A stretch of 64,000 bases of DNA. Source: Minisyncoccota bacterium. GTDB lineage: Bacteria; Patescibacteriota; Minisyncoccia; Phycocordibacterales; DATDWN01. Made by a program: the position numbers and the translations under genes. Within the stretch, counting starts at the first letter, position 1. Every line of letters begins with the position of its first letter. This document shows positions 2,865 through 63,142 of the stretch, piece by piece. Where the stretch lies: contig JBAZZC010000006.1 in NCBI GenBank assembly GCA_041658985.1, positions 2,369-66,368 on the forward strand, written 5' to 3'. The notes below the pieces were generated by a model. That model did no database searches. It saw only the letters and a list, made by a program, of their open reading frames with translations, and was not told the origin of the DNA.

Positions 2865-3005
2865 ATTTATCCGCACACTAATTTTGCCATTGTTTTCAAT
2901 ATTCTGCAACAGAACCCTGTATAAATTCGACTTGAACTGTTTGCGTCAAAAAAATAGAAAGCCATGTTGAAAACCAGAATGATGGCAAATTTAGTGTTCG
3001 GATAT
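2865..3005. repeat. Paired-arm inverted-repeat element, family 1 copy G
   Basis: Left arm TTTATCCGCACACTAATTTTGCCATTGTTTT pairs with right arm AATGATGGCAAATTTAGTGTTCGGATA across a ~75-nt AT-rich spacer. It lies between the DedA stop and the small membrane ORF start, 7 nt from the ATG. Confidence 0.6.
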
Positions 3006-3021
3006 ACCAAATAAAGAAAAA

Positions 3022-3618
3022 CTATTCACTTTTGATAAGATACTTTTTAGCAAGCTTGCTAGATATTATAAACGAAAGAACAACAATAATAATACTTATT
3101 ACAATAAACCCAATAATATTTAGATACCCGTCTATTTTTATATATGAACTACCAATATAATACCCCAAAAACAACAAAGCAGAAGTTTTTAGAATAGTCA
3201 TTATTAAATTAATCCAAAGATATTGAAGGAAATTAACTTTAGCAATTCCCGCTGTTATCTGTATTACCGTACCCGTACCATGAAAAAATTTTGCCGCAAG
3301 GAGTGTCTTGATTTTGTGCTTTCTAAAGTGATTCTCCAAAAACTCCTCACTATTTTCATCATAGCCAAACCAGGACCCGTGTTTTTTTATCCAGACAGAC
3401 TTTTGCCAATATCTACCAACAACATAATGTAATACATCTCCCGTTAAATCACCCACAGCCAACAAAATATAAACTATATAAATATTCAACAAACCCAAAT
3501 AAATAAAAAAGCCAGAAATAACCGTGACGATTGGGCCTTCAAACACTGCGATTGGAAAAATCAGTAAGTATTTATATTGTTCTAAAAAAAACGAAATATC
3601 CGATGAGGATAAAAACAT
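3022..3618 (-). CDS. DedA/SNARE-associated family membrane protein
   Basis: 198 aa, multi-TM, with the DedA-like motif VTVISGFFIYLG...GDLTGDVLHY. Confidence 0.7.
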   Translation of the reverse strand: MFLSSSDISFFLEQYKYLLIFPIAVFEGPIVTVISGFFIYLGLLNIYIVYILLAVGDLTGDVLHYVVGRYWQKSVWIKKHGSWFGYDENSEEFLENHFRKHKIKTLLAAKFFHGTGTVIQITAGIAKVNFLQYLWINLIMTILKTSALLFLGYYIGSSYIKIDGYLNIIGFIVISIIIVVLSFIISSKLAKKYLIKSE

Positions 3619-3788
3619 ACTAAAATAATGACAATTATATAGATAAAAAGCAAGTAGAAAAATTAAATTGACTTATGGAAAAAAATTTGCTTTAATTGGC
3701 CTATCAACTGGCTCTGGGGCCTTTTTTAAATTGAACTGTATCTTTTGATTTGAAGATTTGGATGCAGTTCGCGAAAGACGAAAAAAAT

Positions 3789-3830
3789 ATGACGAGCTTT
3801 ACTCGTCGTAAAGTGAGGAATGTTTTTTGA
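3789..3830 (+). promoter_or_regulatory. 13-codon upstream ORF (MTSFTRRKVRNVF) overlapping a perfect hairpin in the typA leader
   Basis: ATG at 3789 and TGA at 3828. Codons 2-7 form the hairpin GACGAGCTTTACTCGTC. A TTGACT -35-like motif sits ~100 nt upstream. Confidence 0.25.
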
Positions 3831-3870
3831 AGTCCGACAAAGAAATGCGCCAAATATACAAATCAAACAT

Positions 3871-5673: not shown

Positions 5674-5778
5674 TAAAATCTAGAATTTCTATTGATTTTT
5701 ATTAAGAAGATGACCTCACCACACGCCGGAGTGTTGTAGTGCGTGCGATGAGGCCATTTTCTCTACAAGAACTGGGGG

Positions 5779-6102: not shown

Positions 6103-6173
6103 GCGACCCCCACGATTAGATGCCACACTCCACTTACAATCAAATCATTATCACAAAAACTTTGCAAACACAT

Positions 6174-6938: not shown

Positions 6939-6951
6939 ATACTCTGATACA

Positions 6952-7099
6952 ATTAATCCGAACACTAACTTTAGCATCGTTGCCTAGTGTTTTCGTATAT
7001 TATTACCCAATTTGATATTTACTATAGAATAATACATAGTTAATACTAAATAACAAGCAACAGTAAAAACACAATGCTAAAGTTAGTGTGCGGATAAAT
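6952..7099. repeat. Paired-arm inverted-repeat element, family 1 copy A (between divergent truB and hisS)
   Basis: Arms TTAATCCGAACACTAACTTTAGCATCGTTG and CAATGCTAAAGTTAGTGTGCGGATAAAT. The right arm ends 1 nt before the hisS ATG. The spacer is AT-rich with outward promoter-like hexamers. Confidence 0.65.
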
Positions 7100-8628: not shown

Positions 8629-9210
8629 ATGAAAAAAATTGTTTTTGATATTGAAACAAAAAATATATTTCAGGATGTCGGGTCAAGTGACCCAGTTGAT
8701 TTAGATATCTCCCTAGTCGGAGTTTATGATTATGAAACAAATAAGTACGACAGTTTCCTGCAAGAGGATTTTGATAAGCTGTGGGACCTAATAAAAAAGA
8801 CAGATATGTTTATAACCTTCAACGGTGACCATTTTGATATTCCCCTGCTCAATAAATACTATAAAAAAGCCGGTCACGGAGACCTCTCAAAAATTCGTTC
8901 GCTGGATTTGCTTAAAGAAATCAGAAACTGCTACGGTCGGAGAATGAAACTAGACCAAATAGCCCAAGGCACTTTCGGAGCTGGAAAAAGCGGAGATGGA
9001 CTAGAGGCGGTAGCCTGGTGGCGAAACGGAGAAATAGAGAAAATAAGAAAATATTGTCTGGACGACGTCCGTCTGACCAAAGATGTCTACGAGTATGCCC
9101 TAAAAAATAAGAAACTAATCTTCAAAGAAGGGCCTTTTACAAAAGAAATCAAATTGGATACCAAACATTGGGAGCCAGTATCAGAAGTTAAAACGCAGAG
9201 TTTGTTTTAG
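8629..9210 (+). CDS. Stand-alone DnaQ/PolB-exonuclease-like 3'-5' exonuclease (RNase H fold)
   Basis: Exo I motif FDIET and Exo II-like motif ITFNGDHFDIP. TTGCGA-17-TATACT promoter upstream. Confidence 0.5.
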   Translation: MKKIVFDIETKNIFQDVGSSDPVDLDISLVGVYDYETNKYDSFLQEDFDKLWDLIKKTDMFITFNGDHFDIPLLNKYYKKAGHGDLSKIRSLDLLKEIRNCYGRRMKLDQIAQGTFGAGKSGDGLEAVAWWRNGEIEKIRKYCLDDVRLTKDVYEYALKNKKLIFKEGPFTKEIKLDTKHWEPVSEVKTQSLF

Positions 9211-11309: not shown

Positions 11310-14270
11310 TTTGCGATAACCGCAATATTTACATTCCCTATCTGAACAATATTCAGTGGTGATTTTACCACTCCAGACACTTTCTATAACAGATTGAATT
11401 TCTTGTTTCACTCGTTTTACATCATCTTCTTCTACTGGAAGTGTTATCGTTGGACACCTGCCTTTGTCATCTGGAGATACAAAAACCAGTGACGTAGAAA
11501 TCTTTTTTGTTCGCCACTCACGGTTGTTTTGCAAAAGCAATTTGTAAAAAATAAGTTGTCTAAAATAATTACCGTCATCATTTTTTGTCTCTCCTTTAAT
11601 AGCTTCAACGGACATTTTTTGCCGAGTCTTATAGTCAAAAACAGCAGTCTCATCCCCCGTATCAATAATAACATCAAGTTTGCCGTGAACAGGAATGGTT
11701 ACTTTCTCTTTTTTATATACTCCATCAAATGGAAACTTTATCCATCTTTCTGTTGACACAATTCCTTTAGTATTAAAGTGTTCAGTTAAAGCAACAGCTA
11801 CTGCAGGAGTATTTTCAATTAATTCTTTTTTTAGGGCTTCTTTGTCGCCGGGAGAAAGCAGAGATTTATCAATATATTCCGTAATTCTGGTCGCAATAAT
11901 TTTTTCTATTTTTTTAGGAGAATGTTCTTGCTCTCTCCACACTTCCGATAAGGCATCGTGCATGCTACTTCCCTTCTCGGCTGAAACTGACGGAGCCTGT
12001 GGTAATTTTAAAATACTCTCATACATAAACTTGCTTGGACATTCTAAAAAGTGATTTAAGGCCGTGACAGACAAACCATTCTCCAACAGAACTCTCTTTG
12101 CTTCACTTATCATTAAATCATTGTACTCACTATTTATAGTTTTGCCTTTTGCGTTCTCTAGGGAGATATCACTTCTAGGCAAAGAAACTGTGACAACATT
12201 GTCTTTGTGCAGTTCATCCACAAATCGAAGGGGGGTTAAGGTTTTCCCGTCTGACTCTTCTAAAGAAGACAAAATAACTGCGTGCTTGCGAGCGCGGGTT
12301 ATGGCCACATAAAACAATCGCCTAATATCTCGAACGTCGTGGTCCCTTAAATTTTTCTCTGGAAGAATAAAAGAGGAGCCGTGAGACCTCCCCACCCAAG
12401 TCTCCTCGCTGGTGTATGGCATAAAGATATAATCAAATTCTAATCCCTTTGACCCGTGAGCAGTCATGGCTTTGATTGGAAAATCTGGTGCACCGACAGA
12501 AACCTTAACGGTCTTTGATTCAGCTGACTGTCTATGAGCCAACATTATTTTCATTAACTCTGTCGGATTATCTATGTCTCCATCACGAGCCAGTGACTCT
12601 GCTAGAGTAATAATAGCTCGCCAGACATGAACAAATGATGGGTCTCTGGAGACCAGAGCGGTAAACCCAGATTCTTCTCCACAATGGATAATTCCTCCTA
12701 CCGCCCCACTATCTAACATTCTTTTTTTAATATTTAAAATAGCCGGTATCTGTTTGTCTAATTCAGAAACCTGGCCGGACCTCAGTAAACGAATAATCTC
12801 TACCGCCTTACCAAAATTCAGACCCCACATACCAATAGCTAAAGTTTTACTGAGGGCATCAATTTTTGATGGGTCTACAACATATTCAATTAAATCAAAG
12901 AAGGCCATGCCAATAGGGTGATGAAAAATATCTAAACTTCTTTCCGAAGAAACAGAAATACCATGTGATTCAAGGACCCTTAAAACCCTTTCTAATTCAC
13001 GATTCCTTCTTGTAATAACCGCCACTGTCGCCTTGGGTTCATCTTTGGAAATTTTTCTAAGCTCATCTACCAAATATTTTTCGGTGGCAGAAGTGTTTTC
13101 TCCGATGACTATATCAAGAGGCCTCTTTTTTAAATCACTCCCAGGTTTTAACTGTACTCTGAGGTCTACATACTGCCCCTCATCATAATTATTTTCAATC
13201 ATAGCAAAACTGGCGTCCAATATTCCTTGATGTGACCGATAATTAGTGTTAAGAGCAATGACTTCCATGGATGGCCATCTTTTTTGCAGAGATAAAAAGT
13301 TGTCCACCGAGGCCCCTTGAAAACGATATATAGCCTGCTTTTCATCACCAACTATAAAAATATTTGGGGTCTCAAAAAATTCGGCAATTAAACTAATAAT
13401 ATAATTCTGGGCATCATTTGTGTCCTGATGTTCATCAACTAGTATGTAAAGAAATCTTTCTTGGACCAACCTCAACAACAGCTGGTCGGTACGCAAAGCC
13501 ACAAGAAATTCTATTATTAAATCATCATAGTCACGTAACTTTGCAGAATTTTTTTCTTCTTCGTATTTTTCGTATAAGTCAGCAAATAAAAAAGTCTTGT
13601 CTAATTTTTCTAATTTTTCTAGTGCCTCTGCTTTTAATTTGCCTTTGGTGATTCCTCTGGTAGATATATTTGACTCGTCATTTTTTGTTTTTTTTGTTTC
13701 TGCTTTGACATATTCCCGTACCATACTAGGAGTTAGGGCTTCTTTTTTTGAATCAGATATGGCTTTGATTATGGAAGATATGTAGGCGTCTGGCCGACTA
13801 AGCGGTCTAAGGGAAGTAAATCTTTGGTCTGTGAGAATGGAGCGGACGATCGATTCCTGTTCAACATCCGTCATTTGTTTAAAATCTCCTATCCTAATAA
13901 AGTGGTCAGGATATTCAGCCATCATAGCAGAAGCAAATCCATGAAAGGTGTGAATGTAAACATCGTGAGCCTCACTACCAATTACTTCCCGAAGTTTTTC
14001 TCGCATGGCTTTTACTCCAGCATCAGTATAGGTAATGGCTAAAATGCCGTGTGCTGGTGTGTCTGTTTTTCGTAAAATTTGAGCGATTCGTAGAGTCAAA
14101 ATTGTGGTTTTCCCGGTACCTGGACCAGCCACTACCAAAACCGGACCATCAATAGTATCAACCGCTTTTTTTTGTTCTGCGTTTAGTTTTTTATATTTTT
14201 CCTCAAATTCTTTACTAGAGATCATATGTATAGGATAACACGAAAATAGTTCCGTGTTGATTGGGGACAT
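11298..14270 (-). CDS. UvrD/PcrA-family SF1 helicase fused to a C-terminal Cas4/RecB-type PD-(D/E)xK nuclease with a 4-Cys cluster (AddA/AdnB-like)
   Basis: Walker A GPGTGKT, SF1 motifs and a DEHQD box. The C-terminus has ...CPSKF... plus VIIDTGDETAVFDYKT plus C-SDRE-C-KY-C. Confidence 0.85.
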   Translation of the reverse strand: MSPINTELFSCYPIHMISSKEFEEKYKKLNAEQKKAVDTIDGPVLVVAGPGTGKTTILTLRIAQILRKTDTPAHGILAITYTDAGVKAMREKLREVIGSEAHDVYIHTFHGFASAMMAEYPDHFIRIGDFKQMTDVEQESIVRSILTDQRFTSLRPLSRPDAYISSIIKAISDSKKEALTPSMVREYVKAETKKTKNDESNISTRGITKGKLKAEALEKLEKLDKTFLFADLYEKYEEEKNSAKLRDYDDLIIEFLVALRTDQLLLRLVQERFLYILVDEHQDTNDAQNYIISLIAEFFETPNIFIVGDEKQAIYRFQGASVDNFLSLQKRWPSMEVIALNTNYRSHQGILDASFAMIENNYDEGQYVDLRVQLKPGSDLKKRPLDIVIGENTSATEKYLVDELRKISKDEPKATVAVITRRNRELERVLRVLESHGISVSSERSLDIFHHPIGMAFFDLIEYVVDPSKIDALSKTLAIGMWGLNFGKAVEIIRLLRSGQVSELDKQIPAILNIKKRMLDSGAVGGIIHCGEESGFTALVSRDPSFVHVWRAIITLAESLARDGDIDNPTELMKIMLAHRQSAESKTVKVSVGAPDFPIKAMTAHGSKGLEFDYIFMPYTSEETWVGRSHGSSFILPEKNLRDHDVRDIRRLFYVAITRARKHAVILSSLEESDGKTLTPLRFVDELHKDNVVTVSLPRSDISLENAKGKTINSEYNDLMISEAKRVLLENGLSVTALNHFLECPSKFMYESILKLPQAPSVSAEKGSSMHDALSEVWREQEHSPKKIEKIIATRITEYIDKSLLSPGDKEALKKELIENTPAVAVALTEHFNTKGIVSTERWIKFPFDGVYKKEKVTIPVHGKLDVIIDTGDETAVFDYKTRQKMSVEAIKGETKNDDGNYFRQLIFYKLLLQNNREWRTKKISTSLVFVSPDDKGRCPTITLPVEEDDVKRVKQEIQSVIESVWSGKITTEYCSDRECKYCGYRKLLQ

Positions 14271-14288
14271 GGTGACCTCAACACGGAA

Positions 14289-14486
14289 CTATTCAGCGAC
14301 ACAAACTGGAACTGGAGGTAAGACAACCGCCTTCCAGACCCCTTCTTGGTGATTGAACTCCATATCCTCAAGAAGTTTCCAGCACTCATCACAGTAGCGA
14401 TACCCCTGAAAAATGACACGAACTTTCTTTCCGTGGCAGAATGGGCAACGCCTCTCGCCATCCTTGATATACGAAGCTTCAATCAT
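14289..14486 (-). CDS. Small C4 zinc-ribbon protein co-transcribed upstream of the helicase-nuclease
   Basis: CPFCHG...YCDEC. RBS GGAGGT lies 4 nt before the ATG at 14486. Palindrome ATGACCATGGGGTCAT sits just upstream. 18 nt separate it from the helicase start. Confidence 0.5.
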   Translation of the reverse strand: MIEASYIKDGERRCPFCHGKKVRVIFQGYRYCDECWKLLEDMEFNHQEGVWKAVVLPPVPVCVAE

Positions 14487-14562
14487 GTGACCTCCAAAAA
14501 ACAAATATGACCCCATGGTCATTTCGCATTTATAGTAACATTTTATATTTTTTTACACAAAC

Positions 14563-14620
14563 AAAAAAGCCTCGTGCCGGTGGGGATGCCCACATTGGGC
14601 ACCCCACCTACACGAGACCG
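14563..14620 (-). terminator. Rho-independent terminator of GC-island gene 1
   Basis: GGTGGGGATGCCCA-CAT-TGGGCACCCCACC stem followed by a U-run on the minus strand. Confidence 0.6.
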
Positions 14621-14622
14621 CG

Positions 14623-15240
14623 TCAGAAGTTCAGCCTTAGACCGGCCGAACCCCCAACTTTCTTCCCTTCCTTGACCGGCGCGACCCAGAGGTCGAACGG
14701 ACCGAACGACCTCTCAATGTACGGCCCGGTTCCGACGAACCGAGTGGAATTGGCCCCGAGCTTCCAGGAGCCGAGACGGACGGTGCCGGTGTACCGATAC
14801 CAGTATCCGCTCCCGCCGTTCTCATGTGAACTCTCAAGAGTCACTCGACCCTTGCTAATCCACAAGTTGCCTGCGAAGCGAAGTGGCTTCCTGTTGGTCT
14901 CCGCACCAACCAAGAAAGCCACCTGGATGGAGTCAACGGGGGCAAACGTCAGACCGACGAGCCCTTCGGCCCATTTCTCGGTTGACCACTGTCCCCCATC
15001 CTCTGTCCACTGGTTCGTGCCCCACCCCCACACGGCCCACCCGAACTTGCCCTTGATGGGGCCTTCCAGATAGACCGTAACCGAGGGGCTCGTATGCCCC
15101 CCAACGTACTCGTTGTACGATTCGACGAATCGAGTTGGCTCCTGCGCCGACGCCGGCACAAGTGAGGCCACCATCATGACGAGCAAGATGATGACCGTGA
15201 CACCGAAAGTCCGCGGACGAGTATCCAGTGTGATGTCCAT
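14623..15240 (-). CDS. GC-rich secreted protein, possibly an outer-membrane beta-barrel (signal peptide, C-terminal ...LRLNF)
   Basis: 205 aa with an SP ending ASAQ. It has alternating hydrophobic beta-strand-like segments and a C-terminal Phe. ~62% GC with its own promoter and terminator. Confidence 0.5.
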   Translation of the reverse strand: MDITLDTRPRTFGVTVIILLVMMVASLVPASAQEPTRFVESYNEYVGGHTSPSVTVYLEGPIKGKFGWAVWGWGTNQWTEDGGQWSTEKWAEGLVGLTFAPVDSIQVAFLVGAETNRKPLRFAGNLWISKGRVTLESSHENGGSGYWYRYTGTVRLGSWKLGANSTRFVGTGPYIERSFGPFDLWVAPVKEGKKVGGSAGLRLNF

Positions 15241-15254
15241 TGAAACCTCTTTGG

Positions 15255-15330
15255 AATCGGCTGGGGCGACATGCCCCTCTGCTCACAACAATAGCACCAA
15301 AATATTAAATTGTCAATATAAAATTTTGAT
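15255..15330 (-). promoter_or_regulatory. Promoter/5'UTR module of island gene 1 (TTGACA-17-TATTGT, then a GGGGC..GCCCC hairpin)
   Basis: 40 nt are nearly identical to 16085-16125 upstream of the paralogue. Confidence 0.5.
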
Positions 15331-15333
15331 ACG

Positions 15334-15384
15334 AAAAAAGCCCCGTGCCTGCGGAACCCGAGATGGGTTCCGCCGCACGAGACC
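15334..15384 (-). terminator. Rho-independent terminator of GC-island gene 2
   Basis: GCGGAACCC-GAGAT-GGGTTCCGC followed by a U-run. The outer flanks are shared with the terminator at 14563-14620. Confidence 0.6.
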
Positions 15385-15389
15385 GCGCA

Positions 15390-16064
15390 CTACTTGGTCG
15401 ACGCCCAGTGGACACCGACGTAGTACATGTACTGCTTCGCGTTCCCGTTCCGAGAGACGCTCCCGGTAACCGAGAAGTTGTTGTTGACCCTCTGGGTGTA
15501 CGACACCCCAGGGATCCGGTTCAGCGGGTCGTCGAGGAAGTTGAGAAGCGTGTAAGTCAAGCCGACAGGCCCGATATTGGCGTTGAAGCTCGCCAAGTAC
15601 CCAATCCACAGCTTCTCGGGGTTAACCCCGGAGCGCCAGTTCCTCGGCTCGACGCCGATGAACAGACACGGCCACTGAAAAGTCCCTACCGAGACCTCCT
15701 GCCCGGCAATCTTGCCGACCGGCAGACTCATATTCAGGTAGGGACCGACCCACGGAGAGCCCTGGAAGTGCCCAGCCGAACCGGCGACGGTTCCTGTGAG
15801 CTTTCCGAGCTTGAACTCGGGCCCCCAGACAACCCACGCCTGCTCCTGCTGAAATGCCACCTCGAGAAGATGGCCCCGGCCGTTCTTGAAGTCGACGATC
15901 CCGGTTATGCCAGAGCTGATCGGATCCTCACCGGCGGACACCGTGGCACCGGACAGCTTGTAGCCGCCGGGGTCCGCAGGCGGAGTCGCCGTCTGTGCCT
16001 GCGCCGCGAACGGCGTGAGACAGAGGACAAACAGGATGGATGCGACGAGTGTCTGTCTCTTCAC
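15390..16064 (-). CDS. Paralogous GC-rich secreted protein (GTG start, signal peptide ...AAQAQ)
   Basis: Start moved to the GTG at 16064, behind the duplicated promoter module. N-terminal signal peptide; overall similar architecture to 14623-15240. Confidence 0.45.
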   Translation of the reverse strand: MKRQTLVASILFVLCLTPFAAQAQTATPPADPGGYKLSGATVSAGEDPISSGITGIVDFKNGRGHLLEVAFQQEQAWVVWGPEFKLGKLTGTVAGSAGHFQGSPWVGPYLNMSLPVGKIAGQEVSVGTFQWPCLFIGVEPRNWRSGVNPEKLWIGYLASFNANIGPVGLTYTLLNFLDDPLNRIPGVSYTQRVNNNFSVTGSVSRNGNAKQYMYYVGVHWASTK

Positions 16065-16084
16065 GTTGGTCCTTTCGGTATCTT

Positions 16085-16140
16085 GGAGGCGACATGCCCC
16101 TCTGCTCACAACAATAGCACCAAACATCCATTTTGTCAAT
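16085..16140 (-). promoter_or_regulatory. Duplicated promoter/5'UTR module of island gene 2
   Basis: TTGACA...TATTGT plus the same GC hairpin as upstream of gene 1. Confidence 0.45.
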
Positions 16141-16202
16141 ATATCTCCTCCCCCCACCTTCACACAATAAAACCTTTAATCTCGTTGAACTAAAATCTTT
16201 TT

Positions 16203-26461: not shown

Positions 26462-26604
26462 ATAAATCCGAACACCAACTTTGACATCGTTACTTCTGTC
26501 CCAAGTTTTGCTAACCAGACTTATCTATGTGTCCATCAATACTTAATGGGTCATATCATTAAAGTAACAATGGGACAATGTCAAAGTTGGTGTGCGGATA
26601 AAAA
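26462..26604. repeat. Paired-arm inverted-repeat element, family 1 copy B (rpoB upstream/leader region)
   Basis: Arms AATCCGAACACCAACTTTGACATCGTTACTTCTGTCCCA and TGGGACAATGTCAAAGTTGGTGTGCGGATAAAA. The arm-specific variants CCAACTTTGAC co-vary in both arms. Confidence 0.65.
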
Positions 26605-26615
26605 CGAACACAAAC

Positions 26616-26648
26616 ACAAAGAGACCCTTTCCCCAAAGGGCTCTGTTT
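26616..26648 (-). terminator. Intrinsic terminator closing the lexA-DUF167 operon ahead of rpoB (hairpin is near-symmetric)
   Basis: AGAGACCCTTT-CCCC-AAAGGGCTCT with T-runs on both sides. Confidence 0.55.
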
Positions 26649-26811
26649 CTGTTATTAATTTTTTAGCGATTTTGTCGCAAAATAGTGTAAGCGGACCAAT
26701 TAACCTTGTAATCCCTTCACTTTCCACCAAGACTCAATCGTATGAAGTTAAAACTGAGTATACGTCAAGAGCATATTATCTGTCAAGTAAAGTCAACAGA
26801 GTTATCCACAG

Positions 26812-26922
26812 TTTATCCAGGCACCAAGTAGACAAGAAAAACACACCCTTACTAGCCACTTCTGTACATCGATGAACACAGATTAATTAATACTAATGAG
26901 TTATACTTGTCTACTTGGTGCC
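26812..26922. repeat. Family-2 inverted-repeat element, module 1 (arms TTTATCCAGGCACCAAGTAGACAAG)
   Basis: 25-bp perfect inverted arms across a ~60-nt spacer that contains ACTAGCCACTTCTGTACATCGATGAACA. Confidence 0.6.
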
Positions 26923-26949
26923 TGGATGAATTCACAGTGGGTTTGACAC

Positions 26950-27070
26950 CTACATCCAGGCACTAATTGAATGAGTGTAATTCCTTGATATTAATCTATT
27001 TATGTTCATCGATGTACAGAAGTGGCTAGTAGAGATATTTTCTTCTCATTCAATTAGTGCCTGGATAAAT
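26950..27070. repeat. Family-2 inverted-repeat element, module 2 (arms ATCCAGGCACTAATTGAATGAG), an inverted and diverged copy of module 1
   Basis: Its spacer carries the reverse complement of the same 30-nt core. The arms are perfect within this copy but differ from module 1 after ATCCAGGCAC. Confidence 0.6.
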
Positions 27071-27912: not shown

Positions 27913-28055
27913 TTTATCCGCACACTAACTCTGGTATCGTTGCCTCGTCTCCAGATTTAGTTGTGGTTATTTTTATTTGCGTTTATAAAAGTAATAAATT
28001 TAATATTAATTATGGCAACACTGGAGACAATACCAGAGTTAGTGTTCGGATTAAT
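27913..28055. repeat. Paired-arm inverted-repeat element, family 1 copy C (between the small ORF and lexA)
   Basis: Arms TTTATCCGCACACTAACTCTGGTATCGTTGCCTCGTCTCCAG and CTGGAGACAATACCAGAGTTAGTGTTCGGATTAAT (~40 bp). The left arm ends 5 nt before the lexA ATG. Confidence 0.65.
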
Positions 28056-28255
28056 TAAACTGTACTAAATGCTCTCCCAAACCAATTATTAGCAGACCTA
28101 TTTTCTTTCTTAACTTCTGCCAATCTGGATAAAATAAATCTATGCCTTTTTGCTTCCCTTGCATACGATAAACCTTTTATGATTTTGTGGTCAATAACAT
28201 CATTTAAAACTTCCAATTCACTTCTCAATATTTTTTCTAAATTTTGTTTACTCAT
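28055..28255 (-). CDS. Hypothetical 66-aa basic protein, first gene of the lexA operon (likely SOS-controlled)
   Basis: The ORF lies 36 nt downstream of the LexA box and co-directional with lexA. No family recognised. Confidence 0.4.
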   Translation of the reverse strand: MSKQNLEKILRSELEVLNDVIDHKIIKGLSYAREAKRHRFILSRLAEVKKENRSANNWFGRAFSTV

Positions 28256-28290
28256 GATGTTTGTTATTAAAATTTATATATAGATAGTAT

Positions 28291-28339: not shown

Positions 28340-29340
28340 CATATCCCTTGACAACATAATTACAGGGTATATACTTAGGGTATGAAAACAAACAAATACA
28401 CAATACAAGACTTAAAAAACCAGTTCCCCACAGACGAGGTTTGTGCGGAATACATCTTTGACTCCCTACATAGCCGTAAATGCTCATGTGGTGGCGAATA
28501 CAAGCAATTAAAGGGTCGTAGACAGTTTCAATGCTCTAAATGTAGGTATCAGGTAGCCCCGACTGTTAACACCATATTTCACAAATCACCCACCCCACTA
28601 ACTCTCTGGTTTCATGCTTTGTTTGTTTTCTCTACTTCAAAGTCTGGTCTTTCTGCAAAGAACCTAGAAAGCCAAATTGGTGTAACCTATAAATGTGCTT
28701 GGAGGATGTTAAACCAGATTAAGAAGGCACTAAAACAAAGTGGCGATAAATTAAAAGGTGTTGTAGAAACTGACGCTGGATATTTTGGTGGTGTAAAAAA
28801 CGCAGGTAGAAACAATGAGAACTTAAGTGAATCTATGAGAGCTAAAGCTGTTGTTTTAATAGCAGTAGAAAGAAATGGAAACATTAAAGCTAAAATAAGC
28901 GAAAACGCCACAGCAGACAGCCTTGAAAAGTTTGTGAGAGATAGTGTAGAAGAAAAGGCAATATTACTATCTGATAACGCAAGGGGTTTTAACAGATTAA
29001 ACAAAAACTATAGGCATTTCTCAGTCAATCACAGTAAAGGCGAATATGTGAGATACAAAACTCATGTAAACACAGTAGAGACATTCATTTCTCACCTAAA
29101 ACGAAGTATCGGGGGGACATTTAAGAGCGTTTCAAAGAAACACCTGCAGTCTTACCTAGACGCTTTTGTCTTTCATTATAACAATCGGCACAACGACAGA
29201 GAGAGGTTTTCTTCTTTGCTCGGTGCTGTATTACAGTCTTAAGGGTAAATAGGAAACTTGACTTTTTCATATAAATAGTATAAACATTATAACTTATACA
29301 CAGGTATTTTGCATCCGTAGGTAATAGTGATATAATTACA
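28340..29340 (+). mobile_element. Approximate extent of the IS1595-family insertion (ends not resolved)
   Basis: A ~20-nt imperfect direct repeat, AGTAGGTAGATGTGGATAA and CGTAGGTAATAGTGATATAA, flanks the transposase. The right flank resembles a family-1 arm. No clean terminal inverted repeat or target-site duplication was found. Confidence 0.3.
28382..29242 (+). CDS. IS1595-family (ISXO2-like) transposase
   Basis: N-terminal zinc ribbon (CSCGG...CSKCRY) plus a DDE domain. TTGACA-16-TATACT promoter ends 6 nt before the ATG, suggesting a leaderless mRNA. Confidence 0.8.
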   Translation: MKTNKYTIQDLKNQFPTDEVCAEYIFDSLHSRKCSCGGEYKQLKGRRQFQCSKCRYQVAPTVNTIFHKSPTPLTLWFHALFVFSTSKSGLSAKNLESQIGVTYKCAWRMLNQIKKALKQSGDKLKGVVETDAGYFGGVKNAGRNNENLSESMRAKAVVLIAVERNGNIKAKISENATADSLEKFVRDSVEEKAILLSDNARGFNRLNKNYRHFSVNHSKGEYVRYKTHVNTVETFISHLKRSIGGTFKSVSKKHLQSYLDAFVFHYNNRHNDRERFSSLLGAVLQS

Positions 29341-29394: not shown

Positions 29395-29484
29395 TGCGGA
29401 GGATACAGGGATTGAACCTGTGTAACGGTATTAAGCGTGTTGTCGGTGTCGTAGACCGATGCATTACCACTCTGCCAATCCTCC
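29395..29484 (-). tRNA. tRNA gene: anticodon loop CUACGAC gives ACG (Arg) tentatively, with an atypically long ~21-nt variable region
   Basis: Reverse complement has GGAGGAT acceptor stem, AGTGGTAA D-loop, TCGGT/ACCGA anticodon stem, ACAGG-TTCAATC-CCTGT T-arm and ATCCTCC 3' acceptor. No encoded CCA. Confidence 0.5.
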
Positions 29485-47671: not shown

Positions 47672-48367
47672 TTATTGCCAACCACGAGTTACCAGAGCTG
47701 AGCGGGCTGCAGCCTGTTCCGCCTCCTGTTTGGAAACACCATCACCTGTGGCTACTAAATCTTTGCCAACATATACACCAACCGTGAATCTTTTTTCGTG
47801 GTCAGGTCCGGCTTCTTTTATTGTTTTATATGCAGGAGTAATACCATCAAACTCCTGAGCTTTTTCTTGAAACAAGCTTTTAGCGTCAACGTGACTCCCT
47901 GTTGAAATTATATTTTCTATCTTTGGTGTAAAATTTTTCTCAATGAAGTCTTTTGCGGAATCATATCCTTGGTCAATGTAAATCGCACCAATAAGAGCTT
48001 CTAAAGCATTGGCTAGAATATATTGTCTGGCGCGCCCAACATCTTTGCTCTCACCTTTTGAGAGCAGTAAGTAATCACCCATTCCAAGAACCGTAGCAAT
48101 CTGGGAACAAGTATCTGCATTTACTAAGGCCGACCTGTAAGCGGTTAGTTCCCCCTCGGCCCTGTCTTCATATTTTTTAAATAAATAGTCGGTGATAACC
48201 AATTCCAAAACAGCATCGCCAAGAAATTCCAATCTTTCATTGTGTGCCAGACCAGATTGTTTGTTTTCATTTATATATGAACGATGAACAAAAGCCTGCG
48301 TCAAAAGAGCCTCATCTTTAAATGACAGCCCCGCCTCTTTTTGAAATTTTGCAAAATCTGTTGTCAT
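47672..48367 (-). CDS. rnc: Ribonuclease III
   Basis: Signature ERLEFLGDAVLELVITDYLF and a C-terminal dsRBD. Confidence 0.9.
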   Translation of the reverse strand: MTTDFAKFQKEAGLSFKDEALLTQAFVHRSYINENKQSGLAHNERLEFLGDAVLELVITDYLFKKYEDRAEGELTAYRSALVNADTCSQIATVLGMGDYLLLSKGESKDVGRARQYILANALEALIGAIYIDQGYDSAKDFIEKNFTPKIENIISTGSHVDAKSLFQEKAQEFDGITPAYKTIKEAGPDHEKRFTVGVYVGKDLVATGDGVSKQEAEQAAARSALVTRGWQ

Positions 48368-48483: not shown

Positions 48484-49392
48484 CTACTTCTTCAGTAGTA
48501 TATTTATCGCCTTGGTAATTAGTGGCAATATATCATTATAGAAGTTTAAGTCAATTATGTCGGCTAGCTTAAACCATTTAGCATCATCAAGCCCACCCTT
48601 GGCTTCTGGATGTAAATCTTGGTATTTTGCCTCAGCTAAAAAATACGTAACGTGTTTTCTTATCTTGCCTTTTTCTGGATGATAGGTTGGGTATTCATTT
48701 TCACCAAGTTTTTCTTTTATTTTTATATCAAGCCCCAACTCCTCTTTTATTTCTCGAATAGTTCCGTTCTCAACACTTTCATTTTTTGTCTCTTCCGAAT
48801 CACCAATTTTCCCTTTTGATAAAGTCCAGTGACCAAAGACATCGTGAACTAAAGCAAGATAAATATCTTCTCCATCCTTGGCATAAACAACCGCACCACC
48901 CAAATGTTGCATGGGAATATTTGTCGGCATATGCACTTTCCTTTTGTCTTTTGATGTTTCTTCTTTACCGGGCTCTCCCAGTTCTTTGTAAACCGCACCC
49001 AAAACTCCATTAACAAATTTACTTGAGGTCTCTCCACCAAAGGCTTTAGACAGTTCAATGGCCTCGTTTATAGCAACCTTTGGAGGAACTTCCCCTCTAT
49101 CAGAGAACAACAGTTCGTATAACCCAATACGAAGAATATTTCTGTCTATAATACTTATTTTATCTATTGGCCAGTCAGGAGCTGCCTTTTCTATAATCAA
49201 ATCTATATCTTTTTGTTTTTCCAAAACACCGTCTAGTAAATTCTCCATAAATGAAAAATCTCCGTGACCCGGAGCAAATTCCTGTACATTGCGCTTAAAA
49301 ATAGTAGGTATTTCTTTTTTATCTTTTGAGGCAAAGTCCCACTCAAAGAGTGTTTGTAATACTATACTTCTGGAAAGGTGCCTGTTTGCCAT
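48484..49392 (-). CDS. NusB antitermination factor fused to a C-terminal NUDIX hydrolase
   Basis: NusB fold at residues 1-135. The Nudix box GKIGDSEETKNESVENGTIREIKEELGL lies in the C-terminal half. Single uninterrupted 302-aa ORF. Confidence 0.7.
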   Translation of the reverse strand: MANRHLSRSIVLQTLFEWDFASKDKKEIPTIFKRNVQEFAPGHGDFSFMENLLDGVLEKQKDIDLIIEKAAPDWPIDKISIIDRNILRIGLYELLFSDRGEVPPKVAINEAIELSKAFGGETSSKFVNGVLGAVYKELGEPGKEETSKDKRKVHMPTNIPMQHLGGAVVYAKDGEDIYLALVHDVFGHWTLSKGKIGDSEETKNESVENGTIREIKEELGLDIKIKEKLGENEYPTYHPEKGKIRKHVTYFLAEAKYQDLHPEAKGGLDDAKWFKLADIIDLNFYNDILPLITKAINILLKK

Positions 49393-54641: not shown

Positions 54642-55028
54642 TTACGCCATGGCTGAAATGGAAGAGTTGTATGGTTGTGCTAATTTAAATGTTTTGAATT
54701 TATTCCTTATTTTTATCTCCTCAAGGTAGCTTAGAAATTGTTTTGGCAGTGGTGACGGCCCGACCCAAATACTCTTTTGTATCATGACATATCCAAATTT
54801 AATTAAATGTCGCCTAAACCAATCTCTTTCTTTTTTTAGCTCGTGTGGAATATCATACATGACGATAAGATTTTTTGGTAAACTTTTATTGAAAGGAGAC
54901 TGGAAAGAAATATGATATGGGTTTCTTTTTTTTATTACTGATTTGTTGTTTTGTTTTTTAGTAGATACTGGTAAACCAAACATATTTACTTTCACACCTT
55001 TATAATTAAAAATTTTTTGCTTACCCAT
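54642..55028 (-). CDS. Solo Cas2/VapD-superfamily protein with a ~45-aa Lys-rich N-terminal extension
   Basis: LIVMYDIPHELKKERDWFRRHLIKFGYVMIQKSIWVG parallels the Cas2 pattern (ILMFDMP..ERK.YRKFRKFL..GF.M.Q.SVY). No cas1 or CRISPR array nearby. Confidence 0.45.
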   Translation of the reverse strand: MGKQKIFNYKGVKVNMFGLPVSTKKQNNKSVIKKRNPYHISFQSPFNKSLPKNLIVMYDIPHELKKERDWFRRHLIKFGYVMIQKSIWVGPSPLPKQFLSYLEEIKIRNKFKTFKLAQPYNSSISAMA

Positions 55029-57823: not shown

Positions 57824-58057
57824 ATGAAAAAAAGATTATATAAGAGTGAGGAAGATAAAGTATTCGCTGGAGTAATTGGAGGTATTGCGGAATATTTTGA
57901 TATGGACCCAACAATTCTCCGACTTCTTTATATTCTAATAGCTGTCCTAACGGGGTTGGTTCCGGCTATTATTGGCTACATCATCGCAGCCCTCATTGTC
58001 CCCCACAAACCAAGAGTTTACCACGTGGAACACACCGAACCAGAAAAAACCGCTTAA
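57824..58057 (+). CDS. PspC-domain membrane protein
   Basis: VFAGVIGGIAEYFDMDPTILRLLYIL motif plus a TM segment. Confidence 0.6.
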   Translation: MKKRLYKSEEDKVFAGVIGGIAEYFDMDPTILRLLYILIAVLTGLVPAIIGYIIAALIVPHKPRVYHVEHTEPEKTA

Positions 58058-58077
58058 CAAAGCGATCTTTTGGCTTA

Positions 58078-60180: not shown

Positions 60181-60424
60181 GATTTTCTGGTATTTTTCTT
60201 TAATTATATAGTATGTATTATAGCAAAAAGTGGAGTCAGAAGCTAGTCTTTTTTGGTATTATTTTGCGTCTTTGTGTGGATATGTTAGACTTATTTTATG
60301 AGCAAAAATCTACAGCAAAACACAGTTGGATTTTTCTTCTTTAGCACTCAATCCCGAGAGCCGATGTTTGTGCTGTAGAAACCCCAAAAACTTACAACCT
60401 AAACACCAGCTCTCGAGGCTGGTG

Positions 60425-60570
60425 TTTACCCGCTACACTAACTTTACCATTGTTTTTGTATTCTAATTCAAAATGTTGTTGAATAGTGTTTTTTTCATGA
60501 GACTACTGAAAATAATAGTAGTATTCTGTTAGAAAAACAGAATGATGGTAAAGTTAGTGTGCGGGTTTAC
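60425..60570. repeat. Paired-arm inverted-repeat element, family 1 copy D (between divergent gyrB and pheS)
   Basis: Arms TTTACCCGCTACACTAACTTTACCATTG and AATGATGGTAAAGTTAGTGTGCGGGTTTAC. The arm-specific variants CCCGC and TTTACCAT co-vary. Confidence 0.6.
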
Positions 60571-60602
60571 TTTTTAATAATTTTTAACTAAACTATAAAA
60601 AC

Positions 60603-61418
60603 ATGAAAAAAACCATCTATAAAGTGCCAACAGACGAACAAGATAAGCTCTTAAAAGAGTTGGAAGGCAGGAGTGATACAGAGGCAGTACGAATAAAACA
60701 CTACTTAGCCATGGAGGACTTGTCTCGAACAAAAGGCAACCCTTTATGTGAAATTGTAGAAAAAGTAACAAATTTACCGAATTTGAAGGATTTTGACCAC
60801 ATTAATATCCCAGAAGTTATACCAACAAGTATAATCTTTGATTTGTTCGGTTTTTCGGCTGATCATCCAGCTCGAAGTAAATCTGACACATATTATGTAG
60901 ACGAGAAAAATGTTTTGCGTACGCACGATACGGTTATGTGGTATTACTATTTCAACTTACCAGAAGTAAAAGAAAAAATAGCAAGGGGTGAGGATTTGGG
61001 AGTCTTCTGTTATGGTAAAGTCTACCGTAAGGATGAGATAGACCGAAAACACATGAATATTTTCCACCAAATGGGCGCTCTTTATCTTGTGCCAGACAGT
61101 AAAAGAACGGTACCGTTTGATGAATTAAAAAAGGTGTTGGCAGATATTGTAGAAACAGTTTTCGGAAAAGAGATAAAATATCGTTTCTCTCCTGAGACAT
61201 TCCCCTACACAGACCCATCGACTGAAGTCGAAGTTGAAATAAATAACGAATGGTTTGAGATACTAGGTAGTGGTATGCCAAAAAAGGAGGTTTTGAAAAA
61301 TTTTGGTATTGAAGGTTATAACGGTTGGGCTTTTGGATTTGGTCTGGAAAGACTAGCTATAATTGACATGGAATTACCTGATATTCGCCGCTTTGGTCAA
61401 AAGACCCAAGGGTTATAA
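60603..61418 (+). CDS. pheS: Phenylalanyl-tRNA synthetase catalytic core of mitochondrial/monomeric type (no N-terminal coiled coil), truncated by a frameshift
   Basis: HPARSKSDTYYV, LRTH, GKVYRKDEIDRKHMNIFHQ, motif 2 YRFSPETFPYTDPSTEVEVEI and motif 3 AFGFGLERLAII. Ends ...DIRRFGQKTQGL*. Confidence 0.8.
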   Translation: MKKTIYKVPTDEQDKLLKELEGRSDTEAVRIKHYLAMEDLSRTKGNPLCEIVEKVTNLPNLKDFDHINIPEVIPTSIIFDLFGFSADHPARSKSDTYYVDEKNVLRTHDTVMWYYYFNLPEVKEKIARGEDLGVFCYGKVYRKDEIDRKHMNIFHQMGALYLVPDSKRTVPFDELKKVLADIVETVFGKEIKYRFSPETFPYTDPSTEVEVEINNEWFEILGSGMPKKEVLKNFGIEGYNGWAFGFGLERLAIIDMELPDIRRFGQKTQGL

Positions 61419-61741
61419 AGCAATTAAAGCTTGGCCAAAAATTCGTAGAGGTCAGTAAATATCCACCTATCGTCCGTGATATTTCATTTGTTGTCAAAAA
61501 TGATTTCATACCAAATGATTATTTTGACCTGGTTAGAGAAACAGCCCCCAATCTTGTTGAAGAAGTTCATCTGTTGGACAAATATGAAAATGAAGAAAAA
61601 TTCGGAAAAGAGATGGTAAGTTATGCTTTTAGAATTACCTACCGCTCCACAGAAAGAACTCTTGCTTCCGAGGAAATAGATGTGATTCACAAAAAACTTG
61701 AACAGGAAACTACAAGAATATTCAACGCAAAGGTTCGTTAA
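61403..61741 (+). pseudogene. Frame-shifted continuation encoding an FDX-ACB (ferredoxin-fold anticodon-binding) domain. Together with 60603-61418 it would form a ~379-aa monomeric PheRS.
   Basis: The -1 frame reads DPRVIKQLKLGQKFVEVSKYPPIVRDISFVVKNDF...RITYRSTERTLASEEID, which is typical of FDX-ACB. The junction is at the A-run CAAAAGACCC near 61398-61404. One extra A would restore DIRRFGQKDPRVIKQL, matching the PheS C-terminal consensus. Confidence 0.55.
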
Positions 61742-61753
61742 ACAACATTAAAA

Positions 61754-63001
61754 ATGCCTGATATTTCAAATATAATTACATATATATTTTTATTTATATC
61801 TCTTTACTTTGAGGTCTTTATCCTTATTACTTACTTTGAAAACCGTCTCGAAATAAAAAGTGAGGAAAATTTTATAACCCTCGGAGTAAAAAAATATCCA
61901 ACAGTTACAATAATAGTTCCGTGTTGGAATGAAGAATTTACTGTTTCAAAAACTATACATTCTTTGCTCTCTCTGGATTATCCAAAAAGTAAGCTGAAAA
62001 TAATGGTTATAGATGATGGCTCCACAGACAAAACTTGGGAGAAAATCCAAAAGTTCAAAAATAATTCGCAGGTTGAAATATACACCAAGACCAATGGGGG
62101 TAAATACACCGCATTAAACTTTGGAATCTCAAAAATGAGTAGTGATTTGGTGGGTTGTCTCGACGCGGATTCATATGTTCATAAAGATGCACTAAAAAAT
62201 ATTGTGGTTTATTTTCAAGACAAAGAAACAATGGCCGTTGCTCCATCGGTAAGGTTGTGGCAACCAAAAGGCCCTCTTCAACTTTTGCAAAAAGTAGACT
62301 ATGCTTTTGGAATATTTAACAGAAAGATGTTTCATTATTTGCAAGCTGTCTATATTACACCAGGACCGTTCTCCATATTCAGACTTGATGTCTTCAAAAA
62401 ACTCGGAGGGTACAGACACGCTCATAATACAGAAGATATAGAGATTGCCCTCAGAATGCAGAAGAACGGTTACAAAATTGTTCACGCTCATAATGCTATG
62501 GTTTATACAGTCGCTCCAAACAGTTTAAGAAAATTACTCAAACAAAGGACCCGATGGGTTTATGGTTTTATTAAAAACGCTGGTGATTACAGACAAATGT
62601 TTTTCAAAAGAAAATACGGAAATCTCGGAGTTTTTATTTTGCCTATGGCTGCGATTTCAATTATTTCTATCTTAAGTATTGCCAGTATCTCAATCATTAG
62701 TGTATTAAATCTTTTATCGAACAAGTACTTGGAAATACAAGCTGTGGGATTAAGTTTTCATTGGCCATTTAGCAGGTTTGAGTGGTTTTATGTAAACACA
62801 GAAATCATCTCAATTGTTGCAATAATAACCACTGTCGGAACAATAACAATGATAGTAATCTCAAAAAGAATGGCTGAAGGAAAATTCAATCTTGGAATGG
62901 ACTTGATATATTTTCTAACATTGTATATGTTTATAGCGCCCTTGTGGATTGGTAAAGCAGTCTACAATGTCATATTCAGCATTAAAGCCTCCTGGAGATA
63001 A
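61754..63001 (+). CDS. Family-2 glycosyltransferase (membrane-embedded, cellulose/chitin-synthase-like topology)
   Basis: GT-A motifs (DDGSTD, DAD, QRTRW-like QxxRW) with N-terminal and C-terminal TM segments. Confidence 0.75.
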   Translation: MPDISNIITYIFLFISLYFEVFILITYFENRLEIKSEENFITLGVKKYPTVTIIVPCWNEEFTVSKTIHSLLSLDYPKSKLKIMVIDDGSTDKTWEKIQKFKNNSQVEIYTKTNGGKYTALNFGISKMSSDLVGCLDADSYVHKDALKNIVVYFQDKETMAVAPSVRLWQPKGPLQLLQKVDYAFGIFNRKMFHYLQAVYITPGPFSIFRLDVFKKLGGYRHAHNTEDIEIALRMQKNGYKIVHAHNAMVYTVAPNSLRKLLKQRTRWVYGFIKNAGDYRQMFFKRKYGNLGVFILPMAAISIISILSIASISIISVLNLLSNKYLEIQAVGLSFHWPFSRFEWFYVNTEIISIVAIITTVGTITMIVISKRMAEGKFNLGMDLIYFLTLYMFIAPLWIGKAVYNVIFSIKASWR

Positions 63002-63142
63002 ATCCGCACACTAACTCTAGCATTGTCTTTTTTGTTGCAGGGGTTAGTATCAAAATAATAGATTTTATTAATATAATAGTAGATAGCATTACTAAGTTTG
63101 GAAAGACGATGCAACGATGCCAGAGTTAGTGTGCGGATAAAA
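63000..63142. repeat. Paired-arm inverted-repeat element, family 1 copy E (between the GT2 stop and the next gene's start)
   Basis: Arms AAATCCGCACACTAACTCTAGCATTGTC and GATGCCAGAGTTAGTGTGCGGATAAAAC. The left arm starts at the GT2 stop codon and the right arm ends 1 nt before the ATG at 63144. Confidence 0.65.

Follow-up and report, generated by a model that had tools for sequence, protein, structure and literature searches.

Palindromic elements between housekeeping genes of Paceibacteria, probably mobile, share their arms with a compact GIY-YIG nuclease unit

Enterobacterial genomes contain ERIC (or IRU) sequences, imperfect palindromes of ~127 bp which lie in transcribed intergenic regions in either orientation, show compensatory change and share a consensus that is conserved along their whole length; we know of no nuclease-encoding long form of ERIC. 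The closest described kinds to the elements which are the subject of this paper are REPINs and the Correia/ERIC-type elements, and the defining features of each fail here. REPINs have conserved inverted ends around a less conserved spacer of constrained length, with compensatory changes and a hairpin formed in single-stranded DNA or mRNA, as set out in their description (PMC3116915). The Correia elements of Neisseria (CREE or NEMIS) are ~105-155 bp long with terminal inverted repeats (TIRs) of ~26 bp, are often found upstream of genes or separating a gene from its promoter, give on co-transcription an RNA hairpin that RNase III was shown to cut, and differ in presence between strains; a conserved core, an IHF site and duplication of a TA (sometimes CA) target characterise them, and they occur only in Neisseria (PMC2649163). 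Here we describe palindromic elements of 134-140 bp in a 64,000-nucleotide stretch of a Minisyncoccota bacterium (contig JBAZZC010000006.1, positions 2,369 to 66,368; the whole of it is "the window" below). We think it probable that they are miniature palindromic mobile DNA, patchily distributed in Paceibacteria, inserting at TAAA-like sites and related, as forms without an open reading frame (ORF), to a compact nuclease-encoding unit. Genomes of the candidate phyla radiation (CPR)/Patescibacteria are held to be highly streamlined, yet some lineages carry such a selfish-looking hairpin per ~10 kb in their scarce non-coding bases.

A family of hairpins with paired arms and crossed boxes

A covariance model trained on 39 copies found six full elements in the window, two of which were outside the training set; we delimit the core as ATCCG...CGGAT. 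The original prediction, made from the sequence of the window, had announced seven copies and listed six ranges, and the coordinates of these were right to within 1-4 nt. Its arm consensus was upheld by 11 matches in the window versus none in each of 100 dinucleotide-preserving shuffles, and the same arm pairs were returned independently by a repeat finder. The spacer is unconserved, as had been said: the centres of the six copies are mutually unrelated, their local alignment scores of 7-17 being those of shuffled sequences. Folding of all six copies is far stronger than that of shuffles on either strand (z -6 to -10). According to Pfam and ORF scans, the neighbours of the elements are housekeeping genes, namely truB/hisS, rpoB-rpoC, a LexA-like S24 peptidase, pheS, a GT2 glycosyltransferase, gyrB and a VTT/DedA-like gene.

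The arms pair over a stem (S1) of 22 nt per arm that is common to ~60 copies from 17 assemblies; its outer 15 nt (ATCCGCACACYAACT) are almost invariant, and its inner 7 nt vary between copies and are matched arm-to-arm within each copy. Inside S1, both arms carry two short boxes in swapped order, C-Q-n-P on one arm and T-P-n-Q on the other, Q being typically GTTGC and P GTGTTTTT or GTCTC; a second box class has RTYCTG and GTTTTT. The centre within these boxes is AT-rich, unconserved and ~55-65 nt long. The order on a single strand, S1-Q-P-loop-Q'-P'-S1', means that the P:P' and Q:Q' pairings cross. This swapped-box decomposition exceeded the 95th percentile of shuffled controls in 51 of 56 copies, and in-register identity of the arms beyond position 22 is 37%.

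In an alignment of 39 copies, 97.8% of S1 cells are paired, with 7 pairs changed on both sides, as are 95.9% of the Q:Q' cells (3 such pairs) and 86.7% of the P:P' cells (4 such pairs; the subfamilies are partly misaligned here). The observed covariation was reached by none of 500 shuffles, pairing was lost when the partners were slid, and RNAalifold chose S1 with Q:Q'. The arm-to-arm matching that the original prediction had called perfect is in this sense real covariation, but it is not perfect: an A/C mismatch at arm position 6 is present in four of the six, the copy at 2869 has a T/A mismatch at position 14, the copy at 63002 an A/G mismatch at position 18 and the copy at 60428 an indel, and copies in other genomes again show mismatches at positions 6 and 14. 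A rule placing the C arm of position 6 next to the ATG was tried and dropped (8 versus 3, not significant).

Transition mismatches in S1 (n=19), sorted by gene polarity, are G·U on the transcribed strand in 10 cases and A·C in 9, which led us to reject strand-specific RNA selection on the stem; a hand count of mismatches by box orientation likewise showed no strand bias. Taken with the strand-symmetric architecture, this suggests that stem pairing is kept at the DNA level or on both strands, and a DNA hairpin or cruciform intermediate together with a structure-specific nuclease seems to fit the pairing pattern better than an mRNA function does. A simultaneous H-type pseudoknot of P:P' and Q:Q' was rejected because it is implausible on steric grounds where the P helix has 8 bp and a linker is missing (this was reasoned, not computed). 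Since such a helix bars co-formation, the P and Q helices would represent mutually exclusive states, or something not yet understood.

Short variants keep the arms almost without a centre; examples are L001 6921-6989 (69 nt), L018 3110-3185 (76 nt) and a mini-hairpin at L001 7084-7115 (L-numbers are locus labels for stretches from related genomes; the ENA copy of the window contig is ERZ27249449:k141_991391, of 236 kb).

Empty sites, insertion target and distribution

For five of the six window copies, an empty orthologous site exists in a relative, which provides five filled/empty pairs for the presence/absence comparison that had been put forward as a check. Between truB and hisS, L128 (96% identical in HisS) and L125-L127 (79-80%) read CTGATACAAT-AACCTAT-ATG, with a 22-25-nt spacer, where the window reads CTGATACAAT-TA[element]AAAT-ATG. 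The hisS insertion is recent, and it has come between a leaderless-type promoter (cTGaTACAAT-N7-ATG) and the ATG of an essential gene. L129 (90% identical in GT2) is empty at two of the sites: between GT2 and the following 234-aa gene it has GGAGA-TAAA-ATATGG for the window's GGAGA-TAAA/TCCG..CGGA/TAAA-ACATGG (slashes mark the edges of the element), and upstream of pheS it has GGTG-TTTA-CTTTTT for GGTG-TTTA/CCCGC..GCGGG/TTTA-CTTTTT. In the rpoB leader, L045 and L046 (91 and 90% identical in RpoB) have GAT-TTTA-TTAATAG for GTT-TTTA/TCCG..CGGA/TTTA-TTAATAAG, and at the lexA junction, where the window has its element, L002 (81%) reads TAA-CTTAAAATTT-ATG. In L002 and L048 (85% identity) the rpoB leader site is filled by a different subfamily. 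The remaining window copy (copy 1, upstream of an 82-aa gene) has counterparts at the same place in L012 (7784-7919) and L126 (4369-4506), which have other inner boxes, the other orientation and a slightly different junction, differences that fit repeated insertion or replacement at a hot spot.

The flanks are asymmetric, exactly one end being followed by AAA in 46 of 52 elements. At the other end ATCCG is preceded by A-A-T-W-M, the T at -3 being present in 48 of 49 copies, and the T-A-A of this flank is the stop codon of the upstream gene in 14 copies. The 4-mers on this variable side are TAAA (14), TTCA (14), TATA (7), TTAA (7) and TACA (6), with TAAA on the other side. Three of the empty sites hold TAAA exactly at the position of the element, and if the element proper is TCCG...CGGA, a 4-bp TAAA duplication is compatible with three of the five filled/empty pairs; the hisS and lexA copies, which have TTAA on one side and TAAA on the other, do not fit it. 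The earlier statement that no target-site duplication is seen should be put more cautiously in view of these three pairs; identical 4-mers flank just 14 of 49 copies. Judged from the flanking bases, the putative insertion target is T-W-M-A followed by A's, most clearly TAAA. Guide-like pairing of the variable flank with internal positions, as in IS200/IS605, was looked for through mutual information, which was small and not significant after multiple testing.

This target is enough to account for the way in which the elements abut genes, because it is commonest where A follows a TAA stop and in the run rich in A's that, in leaderless-type genes, separates a -10 box (ending AAT) from the ATG. 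Mostly the AAA end is followed by an ATG within 3-25 nt (28 of 49 copies by a strict ORF criterion, ~35 of 49 by eye). In the window, GGAT-to-ATG distances of 4 nt for hisS, 5 for the gene at 63144, 8 for the lexA-like gene and 10 for the gene at 2858 fall within the 1-14 nt that had been claimed, but truB, at 17 nt, does not; pheS and rpoB are 35 and 37 nt away. The arm on the truB side is the CCGAACAC arm, not the GTGTGCGG arm. As for the opposite ends, said to touch upstream stop codons, the distance is 0 nt for GT2 and 3 nt for the ORF at 28055, but 18 nt for the VTT/DedA-like gene, and gyrB cannot be said to be "served" by an arm, since it lies 245 nt from its element.

A scan of 185,579 species-representative genomes for both arms with a 95-125-nt gap gave 41 loci in 17 assemblies, nearly all of them Patescibacteria (Paceibacterota, Zambryskibacteria, Taylorbacteria, Parcubacteria); we take a few "Nitrospira", "Nanoarchaeota" and "archaeon" labels to be mis-binned contigs. 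The window's own proteins are closest to Zambryskibacteria/"Minisyncoccia" proteins. Element density is also uneven, with 2 in 393 kb at the rpoB loci of 80 relatives versus 6 in the 64-kb window, and the metagenome-assembled genome (MAG) SMAG_U8111 has copies with near-identical loops (scores up to 47 of about 65), which points to a recent burst of that subfamily. Considering a phage origin, we found no match to the two-arm pattern in 2.9 million viral contigs. At the Rfam gathering threshold only a tRNA passes in the window, and relaxing the cut-off to E<=10 yields for the elements nothing but generic miRNA-precursor hairpin models, which score 19-29 bits versus thresholds of 57-195. A literature search returned no prior description of the family in CPR bacteria, and none of GIY-YIG genes between inverted repeats. 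The family is real and apparently undescribed, and it is of practical use as a strain-level marker.

Units in which the arms enclose a GIY-YIG nuclease gene

The same arms also bracket a gene. The element at L026 574-875 is 302 bp long and has an 88-codon ORF in place of the boxes and loop, residues 1-71 of which match the Pfam GIY-YIG domain PF01541 (1.6e-14). Its ATG is 4 nt past the 5′ arm, its last codons and TAG stop lie within the 3′ arm (...AAT GAG AGT TAG TGTGCGGAT), and the unit is flanked by ggTATAATtc on one side and by AAAC and the ATG of the next gene, a DUF1003 gene, on the other. We found the arms bracketing a GIY-YIG gene in the same register, flank signature included, in seven of seven loci examined, which represent six gene contexts, the arm beginning 26 nt before the ATG and the stop codon lying inside the 3′ arm in every one. 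Beside L026 these are L132 (protein 86% identical to that of L026; between CorA and CtpB), L136 (77%; DUF3298 and XseA), L140 (69%; RecJ and RNase H), L021 (63%), L146 (63%) and L144 (60%), the last two between tRNA-Leu and an aminotransferase gene. The stems of the long forms co-vary in the variable part (TCTCATTT, CCTCATTT, ATTTTTGTT, CTTTTGC), and the two most distant have a GCCCRCACAC variant of the arm. Among 864 homologues of the L026 protein, mostly of 88 aa and mostly from Paceibacterota, many are on contigs of 0.5-2 kb; the C-terminal residue is S, G or N in 92 of 120, which are the residues that the 3′ arm would encode. In L144 and L146 (503-584; Kaiserbacteria-like) the unit sits directly at a tRNA gene, its left arm sharing bases with the 3′ end of tRNA-Leu(TAG).

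The encoded protein belongs to the minimal Slx1/UPF0213 group, with a GIY-YIG catalytic domain and no auxiliary domain, and is nearest to bacterial Slx1-like proteins. Its best PDB matches are 1zg2 (5e-06) and 1ywl (5e-03), which PMC1564403 classes as minimal bacterial Slx1-family nucleases; the same paper calls the Slx1 of eukaryotes structure-specific. The group I intron endonuclease model of NCBIfam covers only residues 4-39 and scores 24 bits, below its cut-off of 56. Having an arm-bracketed 88-aa nuclease ties these widespread minimal GIY-YIG proteins to a defined DNA sequence. The literature that we found on UPF0213/bacterial Slx1-like proteins does not link them to inverted repeats or ORF-less derivatives.

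We infer that the GIY-YIG nuclease mobilises the short elements, that the intermediate is a DNA hairpin and how the host tolerates the insertions. In such a scheme, the short elements would be non-autonomous relatives of the 302-bp unit, mobilised in trans either by this enzyme or by the agent that moves the long form, probably through an intermediate whose arms pair as DNA (hairpin or cruciform), and insertion would occur at T-W-M-A followed by A's, most clearly TAAA. After insertion, the copy would be transcribed as a 5′ leader or intercistronic RNA able to fold into a stem of at least 22 bp. An RNA hairpin cut by RNase III, as for Correia elements, is then a plausible consequence of insertion. 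We can only tentatively propose the stronger claim, which may well turn out otherwise, that this is a new class of mobile element, in which an arm-bracketed minimal Slx1/UPF0213-type GIY-YIG gene moves itself and dozens of ORF-less hairpins through a structure-specific DNA intermediate to TAAA-like sites. If it is true that the nuclease moves the elements, GIY-YIG would join the DDE, HUH, serine, tyrosine and DEDD enzymes in bacterial transposition, and UPF0213/Slx1-like proteins would gain a first concrete substrate and role. The elements may also be one cause of broken contigs in CPR metagenome assemblies; many of the nuclease homologues, as noted, are on contigs of 0.5-2 kb. That an element is tolerated between the hisS promoter and start codon gives a testable handle on transcription start, leader processing and translation that is leaderless or lacks Shine-Dalgarno sequences, in hosts that are mostly uncultivable.

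Comparison with known elements and with other explanations

The likeness to Correia elements extends to size, TIRs, gene-5′ placement, probable co-transcription into an RNA hairpin and presence/absence between strains, but the centre is unconserved here, the flanks are T-W-M-A / TAAA rather than TA, and the hosts are CPR bacteria. ERIC/IRU differ in that only the arms are conserved in the present elements. With classical miniature inverted-repeat transposable elements (MITEs) they share shortness, TIRs, lack of an ORF, many copies, lineage bursts and a longer partner sharing the ends only. However, that partner encodes a nuclease and not a DDE transposase, target-site duplication is not regular, and DDE transposition of duplex ends has no need of the covariation seen in the inner arm and boxes. 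We rejected the IS1595-family transposase gene of the window as an autonomous partner, its candidate ends (28262-28279 and 29269-29286) being unrelated to the arms. Homing endonucleases of the phage T4 seg/mob and I-TevI type have a DNA-binding domain and no bracketing inverted repeats; the nuclease resembles them in its GIY-YIG domain and in occupying tight intergenic slots in different contexts, but is an 88-aa, arm-bracketed protein with a catalytic domain only. Integron attC sites were also considered and rejected: CACTAAC / GTTAGTG in the arms break the RYYYAAC / GTTRRRY pattern at 2 positions each, the neighbours are housekeeping genes, and no integrase was seen.

REPINs are the closest in general design, having conserved inverted ends, a length-constrained variable spacer, compensatory changes, a single-stranded DNA hairpin, dispersed extragenic copies and no transposase inside the short unit (PMC3116915). 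One could thus suppose that the present hairpins are moved as single-stranded DNA by a single-copy HUH/Y1 transposase (RAYT- or IS200/IS605-like), with the GIY-YIG gene as a passenger, and the lack of a consistent target-site duplication and the constant 3′ and variable 5′ flanks do recall insertion 3′ of a target tetranucleotide. We regard this as improbable. The single arms are not palindromic as repetitive extragenic palindromes (REPs) are, the longest internal stem averaging 3.36 in single 30-nt arms versus 3.51 in shuffled ones; there is no GTAG-type head; neither a RAYT nor any Y1/HUH domain was found among the ~41 window ORFs scanned (~72 kb of this genome being covered); the flank does not co-vary with internal positions, hence there is no guide-like pairing; and the only gene found between arms, in all seven loci, is the GIY-YIG nuclease rather than an HUH/Y1 enzyme. 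The crossed boxes, too, are absent from the REPIN description that we consulted (PMC3116915).

A more serious rival is a primary function at the RNA level, as an RNase III site, a 5′-end stabiliser or a translational insulator, which selection on the mRNA would maintain, with mobility incidental. The elements do lie at transcribed places, between -10 box and ATG, between stop and start, and in the rpoB leader past a promoter-like site. The present stem, of at least 22 bp, has a length on which RNase III acts, and rnc is in the window; at the 82-aa gene, three species share the order promoter, element, gene; and the Correia elements are a precedent. A -10-like TAnnnT hexamer stops exactly 2 nt short of the arm in 12 of 49 copies, versus a mean of 1.6 at other offsets, and would place the transcription start inside the arm, but much of this peak comes from the fixed T at -3, the excess at the distal flank being ~2-fold once that T is allowed for. 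Against an RNA function, the stem mismatches have no sense-strand preference for G·U (10 versus 9, as above), the internal (P/Q) orientation is only loosely coupled to gene and flank polarity (24 versus 11) and so is not fixed relative to the gene, there is no Rfam match, and in the closest relatives, which lack the element, these essential genes are expressed all the same. Nor can it be a terminator, the T's 5′ and A's 3′ of the stem being the reverse of one and no U-tract being present, and an intrinsic terminator was accordingly ruled out. The suggestion of the original prediction that the arms form a leader sequestering Shine-Dalgarno sequences, or a translational insulator, is not supported: there are few Shine-Dalgarno sequences and many leaderless-type promoters, the abutment follows from the target, and the orientation is not fixed. 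On balance we think a primary function at the RNA level unlikely, though it deserves more weight than any other alternative.

It could also be supposed that the elements are invertons, the 22-bp arms being recombination sites around a flipping promoter. The internal orientation is indeed uncoupled from the flanks, orthologous elements are flipped between the window and L012, and the AT-rich centres hold -10-like strings. This we consider very improbable, as the same strain has one orientation only in three samples, no recombinase gene is nearby (the sole transposase, of the IS1595 family, has unrelated ends), the centres are unconserved, empty sites indicate insertion and not inversion, and phase variation of hisS or rpoB is implausible. 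Promoters inside the element were in any case rejected as a candidate, sigma-70-like matches not being enriched. We give even less credence to the elements being paired protein-binding sites, DnaA-like boxes or operators of a global regulator, instead of mobile DNA. In its favour, the arm end TTATCCGCA is identical to the DnaA box at 8 of 9 positions, perfect TTATCCACA boxes adjoin arms at window position 26802 and in L010 and L032, and relatives share a TGTGGATAAC motif upstream of the rpoB promoter; the DnaA-box-like terminus that had been pointed out is accordingly there, but remains a mere resemblance. Against it, binding sites need neither arm-to-arm covariation nor crossed boxes, the present sites are missing from close relatives at the same genes, and the arms also bracket a nuclease ORF. 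A replication origin was likewise rejected, the four perfect DnaA boxes of the window showing no clear cluster and no skew switch.

Our preference for mobile DNA agrees with one of the three options of the original prediction, a non-classical mobile element, which is favoured by the five of six empty sites, the patchy distribution, the burst in SMAG_U8111 and the nuclease-bearing long versions. Several observations weigh against it. The junction rule is not clean (hence the 14 of 49 copies above), and the recent hisS insertion swapped AACCT for TA+element+AA with no target duplication. No GIY-YIG unit was found within 72 kb of this genome, and because short and long forms share only the arms, the nuclease gene could instead have invaded the loop of a hairpin. 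The element of the 82-aa gene stands between promoter and ATG in three species, which could mean a retained function and not a hot spot; the crossed P/Q boxes fall outside what a mobile-element model accounts for; and MAG taxonomy labels are noisy.

Features of the window and side observations

Table 1. Elements, related hairpins and associated features of the window
Feature	Position	Strand	Particulars
Element copy 1	2869..3003	-	class II boxes ATTCTG / GTTTTCAA; TAAA end towards 82-aa gene starting 2858; distal flank TTTGGTAT abuts arm
hisS extended -10 box TGATACAAT	6945..6953	+	now 2 nt upstream of element, formerly 7 nt upstream of ATG; like layout (TGnTAnAAT-N6-8-start) at other genes of the window
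Element copy 2	6956..7095	+	between truB (start 6938, minus) and hisS (ATG 7100); separates hisS -10 box from ATG
Element copy 3	26466..26599	+	rpoB leader, upstream of rpoB ATG (26428, minus)
Promoter-like TTGACA-18-TATACT	26786..26757	-	upstream of element copy 3
Family 2 hairpin	26812..26930		arms ATCCAGGCACCAAGTAGACAAG; adjoins perfect DnaA-box-like TTATCCACA at 26802-26810
Family 2 hairpin	26953..27069		arms ATCCAGGCACTAATTGAATGAG; inverted copy of the 26812-26930 hairpin
Element copy 4	27916..28051	-	between stop of 66-aa ORF (28055-28255, minus) and ATG of LexA-like S24 peptidase (27907, minus)
Element copy 5	60428..60566	-	variant arms ACCCGC, one indel; upstream of pheS
Element copy 6	63002..63138	+	exactly between GT2 TAA stop (62999-63001) and ATG at 63144
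Arm-like sequence TTTATCCGCAGGCTAACT	217..253	+	13/15 core bases; runs into extended -10 box TGATATAAT upstream of gene at 274
Arm-like sequence GCATCCGTAGGTAATAGTGATATAAT	29311..29339	+	weaker; family membership doubtful
rnc (RNase III)	47672..48367	-	Pfam Ribonucleas_3_3 7e-40 and dsrm

The two family 2 hairpins of Table 1 have arms of ATCCAGGCACYAAKT plus 9 matched variable bases, and the covariance model gives a weak match of 38 bits at 26954-27066, within the second of them. Of the solo arm and the arm-like sequence that had been reported, the first (at 225-253 in the original prediction) is possibly a remnant arm; the second is a poorer likeness, and neither was scored by the covariance model.

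Shine-Dalgarno sequences are rare in this genome, and in about one fifth of its genes an extended -10 box, TGnTAnAAT, precedes the start codon by 4-8 nt (for example, those at 8629, 28382, 30145, 34974 (end 36647), 37172 (end 37831), 40083 and others), a sequence pattern that suggests widespread leaderless or near-leaderless mRNAs in this organism. A stretch of ~250 nt in the rpoB leader is conserved across relatives (window 26605-26800, minus strand; L045-L053 and L118), with the order TGTGGATAAC-N5-TTGAC, promoter CTTGACGTATACT, then TTTAACTTCAYACGATTGAGTYTTG...GAAGTGAAGGGATTA...TATTTTGCGACAAAATCGCTAAAAA, then a terminator-like hairpin with a T-run. Nothing in Rfam matches this stretch, in which Paceibacteria may have an undescribed rpoBC attenuator or leader.

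The IS1595-family (ISXO2-like) DDE transposase gene at 28382-29242 (plus) has its own TTGACA-16-TATACT promoter and candidate ends of 18 nt at the positions given above, and is missing from the syntenic region of L002. The tRNA-Arg(ACG) gene at 29396-29484 (minus) is called at 89 nt, unusually long for its type, and an insertion or intron may be present. Adjoining rnc, a 302-aa ORF (48484-49392, minus) joins NusB and NUDIX hydrolase domains in an unusual fusion. The region at ~12000-16200 has a GC content of 0.47 versus about 0.38 elsewhere, with ORFs at 14507-15073 and 15345-16193 that lack a Pfam match, and may be foreign DNA. A small ORF at 54642-55028 (minus; L149 1498-1884) has weak Cas2-like and PaaX_M matches, with no CRISPR array noticed nearby. 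In the window, pheS is frameshifted (~61380-61420, with a stop at 61416-61418), whereas the ENA copy encodes 379 aa (L149 7459-8601), indicating a 1-nt discrepancy between two copies of the same sequence. Lastly, in L129/L130 13684-15096, from the relative with the 90% identical GT2, an RVT_1 reverse transcriptase gene lies beside a bAvd gene, a pair like those of diversity-generating retroelements; the region that corresponds in synteny to the window's end is a few kb away.

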